A stretch of 64,000 nucleotides of DNA. It comes from Schmidtea nova (lineage: Eukaryota). This document shows, in pieces, positions 2,323-5,433 of this stretch. The notes beneath the pieces were generated by a model, which searched no databases, was not told where the DNA came from, and saw nothing but the letters and a program-made list of their open reading frames with translations. The DNA lies in the NCBI GenBank assembly GCA_044892505.1, contig CM097883.1:216690001-216754000 (forward strand), in the 5' to 3' direction. Position 1 is the first letter of the stretch; each line of letters opens with the position of its first letter. The position numbers were made by a program, and so were the translations under genes.

Positions 2323-5300
2323 TTACTCTGACAACTTGCGTTTCGACGACACTCTGATGTTCTCATATGGCTCGTCGGTTAAAATGACTTTTATGTCTTC
2401 CTGGGTGACTTTTGAACCATTATGTGCTACTATCTGGCGTACGAGTGTTCTAAACATTTCTTGTGATGCTTTCTTTTTGTAAACACAGATTTTATATTTT
2501 GTTTCTCGTTTTAATCCATTTATTCGGATTTCTCCTCCTTCTGCTCGTTGACATTTAACTGGACTATCTCCTTTAAATTGCAATTTGACTCTACTCCAAC
2601 ATGCTTCTTCATTATCTGCTCCTTGTATTAATACTTGTACTGGTTTTCTTTTATCATCAGCTTCCGTTTCTTTCAATGATGACAGCATCAGTATCAGCAA
2701 CATTATGTCTTTAATTCGAATTTTATGTAGACATGCTGTTCGTTTTTCATAATTTGAAATTTCTTGCTTGGGTTCATCACTTTTGTTCCCATTTTCCTCG
2801 TTATTGCTTTTTCCATCATCTTTCTCGTCTTTGTCATGGTTTCTGTTGATACTTTCATTGTCATCTTTCTTTGTTTTGTTGTTATCATTCTCTTCATCTT
2901 CATTGTCAGGCTTATTGTGATCATTAGAACCACCCTCGGTTCCGTTTAAAATATCGTCCTCGACATTTATTAATTTTATTATTTCCTCATATCTTTTGGC
3001 TATTTCATCCGCTTCGGCTTTTATATTTGCTCTCTTGGATATCTCATCTTTGGCATTGTTCCAGCTTCGGTGAATTCTGCTTTCTTTTATATTTTCTTTC
3101 CATATGATGACTTGCTGATATAATTCATGTCTTTTAGATCCAATTCTTTCTTTTTCTTTTTTATTGTTCGTAAATCTAAAATCAGGTCTTTGCAGCAATG
3201 CTTTAATCGTTTTATACATTTTCCATTTTCTTTTCATGGCTCTTTTCATTATCATATTTTCACCGTCTTCAAATCTGTCATTGACATTTATCACTCCTTC
3301 GTGCGTAACTGGATGTAACCATTTAATCATTTTTGCTGTTGTTTCGTCTGCATCTTTGTTCACTGCATTTACTAATGGATTTGGATCTGAACTGAGCACT
3401 TCAATATCTTCTTCTGTAGCATTTGACATAATATATTTGATTATTTGATGGTTATTTGCTTGCACTTCATATGATAACACCGTTTCATTTTTATCATCTC
3501 TTTCTTTAAAACTTGATCCGGTTCTCATCAGTTCTGCTATGAGTTTCTTGGATCCTCCTTTTTCAATTGCTACCATCAAGGGTGTTTGATCTTTCCAGTT
3601 TTTCGTGTTGGTATGTTGCTTGCTCCTTTCCATGAGTTTTATTATTTCAAACATTCTCTGTTCATTCCCACTTTTTATTGCGTGGTACAATGGTATTTCA
3701 TCTTTAAAACTGGCAATTGTAAATAATATTGGTAATCTTTCTTTTATGGTATTCATCGCTTCTGTCGTTTCATTTCCTTTGGCATATTCCTCAACCATTA
3801 GGCTTACTCCTCCTAATATTTCGAATAGATCTTTACTTTTTGACCATTCTGGCATAATTTCTTTGGTAATCTCAATGATCAATTCCATCTTTTTGCGGTG
3901 CTCCATTTTTACATCGTCAACTATCTTAGGTTGTTCAGATATTGTTGTTGGCTGATTTACTTTTCTGCTCGTAGTTAATATACGATGTAGCCAATCGTCA
4001 TTTGTATTCTCTCGAAACATACATACTTGTCCTTTTCTGGTCATTTCTTGACTTGATTGTTCTATTATTGTTTCTCGTGTGCAATTTTCTTCAATTTGGT
4101 GTTTCAACTTCATCGTATTCAAATCGATTACAGATCCTTTTAACAGTTTTGGTATTAAGTCTGTTCCAATAATGCATGAGGCACCCAGTTGTTTTATTAC
4201 CGTCAAATAAGTTGATATTTTTACATTTCTGTATTCGATGTCTGTCCATATCTTTCCAACGATATTGACAGATTCTTTGCTGCATGTTATTACGTCTACT
4301 GATGTTTTCTCGATGCATAACCGTAACATTTCTGGTATCATATCGATATCTATTGCTGATATATTTGCGCCAGTATCAATCATCGCGTCTACTTTTACGC
4401 CATTAACTTCGATGTTAATTGTAAGGGTTGGTCCAGCTGGAGTTTTCATCATTGCAATTATCATTGTTTTGGGATTATCTTCACCTGTCGCTTTTCTGGT
4501 CAACTCGCTTCCTGCAATTTTATCAACAATTAATTTATTACTTGTTTCGATTTGTATCGGGGTTACACCGATTTCTATATCATCATCCAGCGATTCTCCA
4601 TCATATTTCAGGTGAAATGGTAAATTGAATGGTAATCTCTCTTTTATCTCTTTGATCTTTGTCGTTAATGATACATTCATCTTTATTTCTTCTAGACTCG
4701 GAAACTGAATTTTCAATCGGCACATCTGTGGATCATCGTTTGTTTGTTCCAGTTGTTTCCATTTTCTCATGATGTCATCAAATTGTTTTGCATACCAAGG
4801 GCATAAACGTCTGCATTTCTCGATTTCTCTCCCTATCAATCTCATGTTTGATATATTTGCACTATTTTTTATAACCCATTTTAATAATTCAGTTGTTGTT
4901 TCACATTGCGCTCCTGCACTCTTGCTTAGGTTACTGATTAATCGTTCGGTCTTTGACGTCTCTGTTTGTTTTGACCTTTCAAGCTTCGCTGATTTCCTCT
5001 TTTCTTCCGATTTTTGATTCATTTTCGTCATTTCTTCTATGGTAATGGTTAACAATCTTTGTGCCACTTCTTCTAATTTGATTGTCGTAGATTCATCCCA
5101 TTTCTCGTCCATGCTACATGTATCATCATTGCTTCTTCTTTCTCTTCTTTTTCGGTTATATTTCTCCACAAACCTCTTCTTTTCTTCTCCTTCCATGTCT
5201 TTTACTGAAAATTCATATACATTTCCCTTTCTTTCAATTTCAACGTCTGATAATTCGGTTATCATTTCATTTACTTTTCCTTCGATATTCTGTTGCAGTT

Positions 5301-5433
5301 GCATATTCATTGTTACTACTTCGCTTTCTTCTTCCTGTAAATTATCTTCTACATTTGGACTGGTTATTTTCTGCTCTTCTTTTAATAAATTATCTTCTGA
5401 GTTTGCACTGGTAACTTTCTGATTCTTCTCCAT
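2323..5433 (-). CDS. 1036-aa multidomain protein: charged/helical N-terminus, ubiquitin-like domain (~aa 237-305), retropepsin-type aspartic protease (~aa 335-445), ankyrin repeats (~aa 575-700), D/N/E/K-rich linker, C-terminal domain
   Basis: Protease motifs INIEVNG-VKVDAMIDTGANIS and CIIGTDL; ankyrin-like DQTPLMVAIEKG..LIAELMRTGS..ERDDKNETVLSY; UBL-like EIKMNVSLTTKIKEIKERL and FHLKYDGESLDDD; no introns. Confidence 0.75.
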   Translation of the reverse strand: MEKNQKVTSANSEDNLLKEEQKITSPNVEDNLQEEESEVVTMNMQLQQNIEGKVNEMITELSDVEIERKGNVYEFSVKDMEGEEKKRFVEKYNRKRRERRSNDDTCSMDEKWDESTTIKLEEVAQRLLTITIEEMTKMNQKSEEKRKSAKLERSKQTETSKTERLISNLSKSAGAQCETTTELLKWVIKNSANISNMRLIGREIEKCRRLCPWYAKQFDDIMRKWKQLEQTNDDPQMCRLKIQFPSLEEIKMNVSLTTKIKEIKERLPFNLPFHLKYDGESLDDDIEIGVTPIQIETSNKLIVDKIAGSELTRKATGEDNPKTMIIAMMKTPAGPTLTINIEVNGVKVDAMIDTGANISAIDIDMIPEMLRLCIEKTSVDVITCSKESVNIVGKIWTDIEYRNVKISTYLTVIKQLGASCIIGTDLIPKLLKGSVIDLNTMKLKHQIEENCTRETIIEQSSQEMTRKGQVCMFRENTNDDWLHRILTTSRKVNQPTTISEQPKIVDDVKMEHRKKMELIIEITKEIMPEWSKSKDLFEILGGVSLMVEEYAKGNETTEAMNTIKERLPILFTIASFKDEIPLYHAIKSGNEQRMFEIIKLMERSKQHTNTKNWKDQTPLMVAIEKGGSKKLIAELMRTGSSFKERDDKNETVLSYEVQANNHQIIKYIMSNATEEDIEVLSSDPNPLVNAVNKDADETTAKMIKWLHPVTHEGVINVNDRFEDGENMIMKRAMKRKWKMYKTIKALLQRPDFRFTNNKKEKERIGSKRHELYQQVIIWKENIKESRIHRSWNNAKDEISKRANIKAEADEIAKRYEEIIKLINVEDDILNGTEGGSNDHNKPDNEDEENDNNKTKKDDNESINRNHDKDEKDDGKSNNEENGNKSDEPKQEISNYEKRTACLHKIRIKDIMLLILMLSSLKETEADDKRKPVQVLIQGADNEEACWSRVKLQFKGDSPVKCQRAEGGEIRINGLKRETKYKICVYKKKASQEMFRTLVRQIVAHNGSKVTQEDIKVILTDEPYENIRVSSKRKLSE

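Follow-up and report, generated by a model that had tools for sequence, protein, structure and literature searches.

Burro/GYPSM1 elements are giant Gypsy-like long terminal repeat (LTR) retrotransposons of planarians, with a published reading frame of 4,873 amino acids (aa) in which a SUMO-like PF11976 domain is placed after MATH (PMC6431247, available excerpt). The same excerpt raises the possibility that they tinker with the apoptosis and ubiquitin systems of the host (PMC6431247). This analysis concerns a 22.7-kb LTR element and its 1036-aa open reading frame, ORF1, which lies in a 64,000-nucleotide stretch of Schmidtea nova DNA (assembly GCA_044892505.1, contig CM097883.1, positions 216,690,001 to 216,754,000 of the forward strand; hereafter the window, counted from its first letter). 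The element is almost certainly a non-autonomous Burro-like derivative, and is compared below with an autonomous Burro-like element of the same genome, here called the helper.

LARD and TRIM elements are non-coding. Among coding non-autonomous LTR elements, TR-GAG keeps only Gag in less than 4 kb and BARE-2 lacks only Gag, and with all four types the present element has in common LTRs, a primer site, target duplications, an incomplete set of enzymes and presumed mobilisation in trans (PMC4350172, available excerpt). Wheat harbours a non-autonomous/autonomous pair, RLG_Quinta and RLG_Cereba; as in RLG_Quinta, an old derivative combines its helper's primer site and LTR termini with an intact ORF and variable modules, and has no reverse transcriptase (RT) or integrase (PMC11302176, available excerpt). 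Unlike RLG_Quinta, which keeps Gag, the element studied here has lost Gag and keeps a protease and accessory domains, with TRAF, IAP, RING and membrane-protein cargo (PMC11302176). In short, Gag or Pol is retained in the coding non-autonomous elements known so far, and this one keeps only a protease and accessory modules. To our knowledge, none of TR-GAG, BARE-2, LARD and TRIM combines a retained protease with the loss of both Gag and RT. A published non-autonomous Burro partner was not found in the literature searched; the original 2018 Burro genome paper, its supplements and Repbase lay outside that search and may name such a family otherwise. Nor did the same literature yield an element that has dispensed with Gag, Env, RT and integrase yet keeps selected protease and accessory domains together with swappable cargo.

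ORF1 and its parts are laid out as follows.

2323..5433, minus strand: ORF1 (P0001), 1036 aa, very probably a reduced Burro-like polyprotein
5005..5301, minus strand: aa 45-143, homologue (44%) of the helper segment directly past the zinc knuckle; capsid and CCHC not kept
4729..4968, minus strand: aa 156-235, predicted four-helix domain, common to the helper, no family matched
4492..4728, minus strand: aa 236-314, probable SUMO/Rad60-type ubiquitin-like domain (UBL) without terminal Gly-Gly, 64% identical to the helper at aa 232-312
4099..4461, minus strand: aa 325-445, Gypsy-type retropepsin; catalytic D353 codon at 4375-4377
3064..3918, minus strand: aa 506-790, ankyrin-repeat region, Pfam core 582-672, homologous to the helper's post-integrase region
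2674..2706, minus strand: aa 910-920, hydrophobic stretch, possible internal signal sequence
2464..2661, minus strand: aa ~925-990, remnant of one FN3-like repeat from the helper's C-terminal membrane module, near-neutral evolution

A preliminary description of this locus had reported an intact ORF with a DTG protease, ankyrin repeats after it and no RT behind it, and these observations hold. The frame runs from ATG to stop on the minus strand (5433->2323), and the plus strand over the same interval is full of stops. Pfam places RVP at aa 339-430 (E 2.5e-5), with the catalytic D353 within MIDTGAN, and Ank_2 at aa 582-672 (E 3e-8), both above cut-off, along with a weak Rad60-SLD match at aa 239-286. 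No RT was found within ORF1, and a blastn comparison of window positions 1-11993 and 20861-24400, plus the off-window remainder of the element, with the helper left the RT/RNase H/integrase region unmatched. A single 11-residue hydrophobicity peak reaches at least 2.5 in ORF1, the stretch at aa 910-920, which is not a 19-residue membrane helix. Because it aligns with a similar helper stretch that precedes the FN3/membrane module, the polyprotein boundary suggested there earlier is plausible. The remnant beyond it also matches a further helper FN3-like repeat (E 9e-5).

Database searches gave little beyond this. A fold search with the helical part (aa 156-235) matched only generic helical bundles, leaving a CID domain, considered as a candidate, unsupported. 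Word-indexed protein searches with aa 225-760 returned only generic ankyrin proteins (3/4,869 and 1/5,043 candidates). HMMER, run with aa 150-470 against 1.84 billion representatives, returned 40 matches, none joining a UBL to a protease and none annotated as Ddi1; most were retroelement proteases, several of them from env-bearing Gypsy polyproteins, and three were repeat proteins on the UBL region that are probably spurious.

The origin of ORF1 is best seen in the helper. An RT-RNase H family search returned frames of ~3,232, 3,401 and 4,993 aa and a Bcl-2 search returned frames of ~3,070 aa; one copy of each was read. The longest belongs to the helper, which measures 29.8 kb (29,780 nt between outer LTR ends), has 4.1-kb LTRs and a single ~4,993-aa frame, and shows the Pfam order gag, CCHC, MATH, fusion glycoprotein PF24664, protease, RT, RNase H, integrase, ankyrin and FN3. 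In size and content (~30 kb, a single ORF of ~4,900 aa from gag to ankyrin) it corresponds to Burro, to which it was likened by domain content rather than by sequence, protein searches having returned no Burro1-4/GYPSM1 sequence: gag, CCHC, MATH, env between gag and protease, protease-RT-RNase H-integrase and ankyrins are all there, and its homologue of the UBL follows MATH, where PF11976 is placed (PMC6431247). BCL2, BIR and dUTPase gave no Pfam match at E<=0.05 in the one helper copy scanned; their published detection was by HHpred (PMC6431247).

Three other env-bearing Gypsy families (3,401, 3,232 and ~3,073 aa) were considered as helpers and set aside, with no LTR match and protease identities of 26-28/~100. 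Between gag and protease, these families (L078, L082, L086) have a fusion glycoprotein of Monjiviricetes type, preceded in two of them by a Bcl-2-like match.

Four blocks of ORF1 map in the same order onto the helper polyprotein, at 41-61% identity: aa 45-143 onto the segment after the zinc knuckle (44%), aa 156-314 onto the segment after MATH (52%), aa 302-455 onto the protease (61%) and aa 464-986 onto the segment after the integrase (41%). What these blocks leave out is exactly gag/CCHC, MATH, env, RT/RNase H/integrase and most of the FN3/membrane tail. The UBL comes to lie beside the protease, and the protease beside the ankyrins, because the helper parts between them, env in the first case and RT/RNase H/integrase in the second, are gone. 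It follows that the ankyrins do not stand in place of an RT; the helper has them after its integrase, and the RT between would have been lost in frame. Nor was a UBL joined anew onto a protease, since both already occur in the helper polyprotein in this order, split by env. The domain combination, described earlier as unrecognised, is thus not newly assembled but drawn from the domains already published for Burro, and the BIR and MATH cargo is also of Burro type (PMC6431247). Where the element departs from Burro is in lacking gag, env and protease-RT-RNase H-integrase in one giant ORF; its 22.7 kb hold a 1036-aa ORF1 and separate cargo ORFs, without gag, env, RT, RNase H or integrase. ORF1 would have arisen from a Burro-like ancestor by successive in-frame losses.

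In Ddi1 and DDI2 a UBL likewise lies upstream of a retroviral-type aspartic protease, and the preliminary description took ORF1 for a Ddi1-like effector, in which the joined UBL and protease would cleave ubiquitinated host proteins picked by the ankyrins. The arrangement is real, with moderate confidence: a probable beta-grasp at aa 236-314 stands N-terminal to the protease, directly before it in all examined copies spanning that region, its fold has some support (below), and TRAF, IAP and RING ligase genes are neighbours. The protease, however, is of Gypsy origin, with 81/114 (71%) identical positions to the helper protease versus 21/89 (24%) to Ddi1, of which the host has its own. PF09668 scores the ORF1 protease at 25.2 bits (cut-off 26) and host Ddi1 at 148.3 bits. 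In a protease tree the element pairs with the helper (support 88/69), apart from Ddi1, whose branch is long; the branch measures 0.30 on the element's side versus 0.07 on the helper's. Moreover, Ddi1 activity requires a helical domain, HDD, between UBL and protease (PMC7149228, available excerpt). In ORF1 the UBL ends at ~aa 305-314 and the protease starts at ~325, which leaves ~10-20 residues and no helical domain between them; a predicted helical domain precedes the UBL instead. No UBA was seen, UBL and protease still have a border motif of helper type between them, and the protein belongs to a multi-copy mobile element and has an ankyrin region. Given the Gypsy-origin protease and the missing HDD, ORF1 was rejected as a Ddi1, and the effector reading is highly improbable. 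With the adjacency explained by loss of env, the likeness appears to be a convergent neighbourhood reached through deletion.

The ubiquitin-like segment itself calls for care. The by-eye alignment to ubiquitin on which the preliminary description relied is within chance: when compared with 14 distinct ubiquitin-like sequences of the same genome, 348-1147/2000 shuffles score as high, and the hhalign probability is 0.2%. That pairwise similarity was rejected as evidence, but the fold it was meant to indicate is probable, since a weak Pfam match, a beta-grasp model and UBLs at the top of two fold searches agree. On the isolated segment, Rad60-SLD reaches E 4.2e-4 and 20.5 bits, below the 23.8 cut-off. 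An AlphaFold2 model has beta-grasp topology at low confidence (pLDDT 57.6); its input was a two-row alignment of element and helper only, without any ubiquitin. Foldseek with this model puts Rad60 SLD2 on top (prob 1.00, E 0.03, TM 0.53), followed by SUMO1 and NEDD8, with none at E<=0.001. In VIA-align the best three matches are all UBLs, at middling Z scores of 6.0-6.2 (rmsd 2.5-2.9 A over 63-66 residues). Other attempts were less productive: an earlier fold of aa 156-314 left the UBL part unfolded (pLDDT 45), a PDB sequence search with the aa 156-314 alignment found no UBL, and the ESM Atlas returned no matches for aa 150-320 and only leads (0.82-0.83) for aa 232-312, with ubiquitin/Rad60-SLD clusters from rank 10.

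The unit around ORF1 consists of a 5' LTR of 4.55 kb, an internal stretch of 13.6 kb and a 3' LTR of 4.56 kb. Its boundaries were drawn from the window's downstream neighbour and four other loci, and its parts outside ORF1 are these.

20861..24292, minus strand: upstream part of the 5' LTR, begins TG..., 99.3% identical to the 3' LTR
10876..11993, minus strand: downstream part of the 5' LTR, ends ...CA, 99.8% identical to the 3' LTR
11994..20860, no strand assigned: unrelated later insertion into the 5' LTR, an 8.9-kb DNA element whose terminal inverted repeats span 1505 nt, with a 6-bp duplication
24293..24296, minus strand: 4-bp target-site duplication ATAG, matched past the 3' LTR
10848..10865, minus strand: primer-binding-site-like 18-mer, 10 nt inside the 5' LTR end, one base off the helper's
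7627..8109, minus strand: upstream RING ORF, 160 aa (C3HC4_3, IAP-type), 95.6% protein identity to the helper's
6187..6599, no strand assigned: 21-nt tandem array in the leader, common to the helper
392..1849, minus strand: coiled-coil-type ORF, 485 aa, ends EETFV, unmatched in the helper
G000:C2:216682741-216687304, off the window: 3' LTR

All five family insertions inspected (5/5) have 4-bp target duplications and TG...CA ends, and LTR pairs are 100, 100, 99.2 and 99.3-99.8% identical, which marks the insertions as recent. The helper likewise has TG...CA termini and a 4-bp target duplication. The ends of the two elements are close: the first ~650 nt of the LTR are 95-96% identical, the last stretch 96-97% in 4/5 family LTRs (235 nt) and 88% over 438 nt in the fifth, the leader 84-94% and the last ~300 internal nt 93%. 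The LTR-end/primer-site junction has 1,837 matches in the genome, close to the sum of the family (1,630) and helper (185) markers. Given the common LTR termini, primer site and 3' internal end and the 4-bp duplications, mobilisation in trans by the helper is most likely. The coding regions differ far more, with 45/95 four-fold sites in conserved ORF1 codons distinct from the helper, so the coding split is old. The element would be either an old satellite, whose ends selection or template switching kept matched to those of the helper, or the bearer of an ORF from another Burro lineage that acquired these ends.

No primer tRNA was matched to the primer site when one was sought, and a 15-mer from that site has 3,883 genome matches, other families included. 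Purine runs of at least 9 nt are missing from the last 300 nt before the 3' LTR in the element and the helper alike. Before the 3' LTR lies instead a conserved palindromic stretch rich in GC (L031 7304-7610, L075 6800-7106), and the primer site is 10 nt from the LTR end (window 10848-10875). Priming of the plus strand may be unusual. Tandem layouts also occur, with two internal regions of the family 14.5 kb apart and LTR ends repeated every ~5 kb (L046-L050, L040-L041).

That the protein is element-encoded, as first suggested, is clear from the LTR unit with its target duplications and from the abundance of the family. An exact ORF1 24-mer has 1,630 genome matches, so there are at least 1,630 copies, compared with 185 exact matches for a helper RT 24-mer. 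A degenerate protease motif common to both families has 2,122 matches; among 100 listed, 86 were of the family type and 14 of the helper type by eye. The copy ratio of family to helper is about 6-9 : 1. In a genome search with aa 230-710, 89 of 9,064 candidates were scored, all with full query coverage and 96-100% identity, and 88 without a stop. The 150 best protease matches (98-100% identity) all sit in frames of at most 1,081 aa, and thus no autonomous form of the ORF1-type protease is apparent among them.

Twenty copies were sampled for closer comparison (every fifth of the first 100 listed 24-mer matches, all in the first 63 Mb of contig C1). Over 10 kb from ORF1 onward, the helper gag, env, post-protease segment, RT/RNase H, integrase and C-terminus were found in 0/20, and the same segments were unmatched over 5 kb in four further copies. 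No gag family scored above cut-off in the scanned element ORFs, and with helper gag and nucleocapsid unmatched in 20/20 downstream reads, the Gag ORF that characterises TR-GAG and Quinta is missing. What the element does have of a non-autonomous LTR retrotransposon is paired TG...CA LTRs with a target duplication, no RT or integrase, and a primer site and LTR termini common to an autonomous family. A standard gag-pro-RT polyprotein in which the ankyrin block was a one-off insertion, which would have spoken against the preliminary description, was not seen; the architecture is fixed in the family.

Beside ORF1 the copies vary. The coiled-coil-type ORF was found in 18/20 sampled copies, as a 527-aa frame in copies other than that of the window, and past it lie two short ORFs with signal- and membrane-like stretches by eye. 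Optional cargo after ORF1 comprises a TRAF (RING, zf-TRAF, MATH) plus an IAP (BIR, RING) in 8/20, and in 4/20 a 484-aa protein with, by eye, a signal-like start, a Cys-rich segment and a membrane-like end. The window copy is without both cassettes. Four unrelated element ORFs have x-T-x-V ends: EETFV (window 392-410, minus strand), QETLV (L075 5753), EETFV (L079 689) and HMTPV (L035 6395). These C-termini resemble what we take to be class I PDZ-binding motifs.

Across the sampled copies the protease and ankyrin region are under purifying selection. The DTG is kept in 20/20, and the ratio of non-synonymous to synonymous differences (pN/pS) is 0.30 (codon bootstrap confidence interval 0.25-0.36), versus 0.73 expected under neutrality from the observed mutation spectrum. 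Regional w values, calculated from variants common to two or more copies, are 0.14 for the ankyrin region (p 7e-10), 0.29 for the protease (p 0.0017) and 0.30 for aa 1-155. The 30 best-scoring loci give a similar picture that is biased by how they were chosen.

From the anatomy of ORF1, its colinearity with the helper, the common cis-acting ends, the recent integrase-type insertions, the excess of copies and the constraint on protease and ankyrins, all established here, a working model can be drawn. ORF1 is probably, with appreciable room for doubt, the reduced polyprotein of a helper-mobilised LTR element that cleaves itself and releases host-modulating cargo. The element RNA would be packaged, reverse transcribed and integrated by helper proteins, and ORF1 would be translated in the host cell and cut by its own protease, as the intact DTG and kept border motifs suggest. 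A protease would be needed because this mRNA yields polyprotein outside helper particles. The released UBL-bearing and ankyrin pieces may then join the RING, TRAF and IAP products in modulating host ubiquitin and cell-death signalling, a role suggested by the domain families of the RING, TRAF and IAP ORFs beside ORF1. Candidate border motifs are IAMM (aa 326-329) before the protease, where the helper has it too, QVCMF (469-473) before the ankyrins and TACLH (899-903) before the hydrophobic stretch. A short Cys/Met motif, found in ORF1 at aa 469 and 899, occurs in the helper after the protease, in the RNase H/integrase interval, after the integrase, before the FN3 module and in one further place; the pattern was picked after the alignments had been viewed and serves as a lead.

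Several observations weigh against this model. The exact motif GQ[VI]CM is present in only 12/20 sampled copies, and full-length ORF1 (at least 1,035 aa) in only 10/20. The UBL is not significantly constrained (w 0.48, p 0.14), nor are the linker, acidic and C-terminal parts (w 0.55-0.67, linker 0.64), the last of which is near neutral (w 0.67-0.86). The selection statistics come from 20 position-sampled copies that are related, so their counts are not independent events. The pairing of element and helper proteases has support of only 88/69, the primer site alone is non-specific (its 15-mer occurs in other families) and does not name the helper, and, with one helper copy fully read, the coding parent may be another Burro lineage. 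Finally, if the host modulator diffused freely, intact and broken copies would benefit alike, so that purifying selection at the copy level is better accounted for by a role in cis.

This last point is where an alternative of the same identity but another job gains ground. The reduced polyprotein could co-assemble with the helper's polyprotein in virus-like particles and there, through its post-nucleocapsid segment, additional protease and ankyrins, bias assembly, maturation or integration towards its own RNA. Copy-level purifying selection is what such a cis benefit predicts, and is explained better this way than by released cargo; the protease and the ankyrin region, the latter following the integrase in the helper, are the most constrained parts, the family exceeds the helper 6-9 : 1, and the protease branch is longer on the element's side. 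The capsid and zinc knuckle, which are the usual assembly and RNA-binding parts, are nevertheless what was lost, and non-coding non-autonomous elements outnumber their helpers too. On balance a cis-acting satellite is unlikely, though it deserves consideration. A bolder version, also rather unlikely, is a true satellite of a giant env-bearing retroelement that shed its core replication and structural proteins, commandeers helper particles in cis through a self-cleaving protease-ankyrin-UBL polyprotein and uses the freed space as a swappable TRAF/IAP/membrane-protein cassette. If true, this would make the element a vector that carries modulators of cell death and immunity at high copy number in an animal genome.

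The truncation of half the sampled copies and the near-neutral C-terminal part would also suit an idle protein, its frame open only for RNA stability or left over from a few master copies. Such a relic would not be expected to show amino-acid constraint that differs by domain (ankyrin w 0.14, linker 0.64), or DTG in 20/20 despite silent sites near saturation with respect to the helper (45/95), and it is very unlikely.

Under the favoured model of a self-cleaving, helper-mobilised polyprotein with host-modulating cargo, the family has uses beyond its own description. The ~5,000-aa Burro polyprotein is hard to study (PMC6431247), and the 1036-aa ORF1 offers a construct for protease processing and accessory domains. 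The family also amounts to a natural deletion experiment: with replication outsourced, the ankyrin region and protease stay selected and the FN3 tail decays. With ~1,600-1,800 copies, each at most 22.7 kb long, it may account for as much as ~3% of the genome, an upper estimate given that many copies are partial. Classification based on RT would miss it, and it extends coding non-autonomous LTR elements beyond Gag-keeping types.

The insertion that splits the 5' LTR (11994-20860) has perfect inverted repeats beginning AGTAG and a 144-nt tandem array inside. It encodes an ORF of 1017 aa (13345-16398, minus strand) with an endonuclease VII motif (Pfam) and family-B polymerase motifs (by eye), its C-terminal part split off. 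We take the insertion to be a Polinton/Maverick-like remnant. Related elements adjoin other loci (L032, L033, L045, L080, L087, L088).

Other ORFs in the window, of host type or otherwise, are as follows.

51477-53192, plus strand: translation initiation factor IF2-like GTPase ORF
28906-29481, plus strand: class II glutamine amidotransferase exon
57153-57656, minus strand: GIY-YIG nuclease ORF

Elsewhere, many loci (among them L140, L142 and L116) have near-perfect ubiquitin ending in LRGG/LCGG, in frame before a gag/CCHC/protease-like ORF, with 2,223 candidates at first look. This ORF is presumably Bel/Pao-like, judging from its motifs, and in two loci an Hsp70-like sequence (by eye) precedes the ubiquitin.

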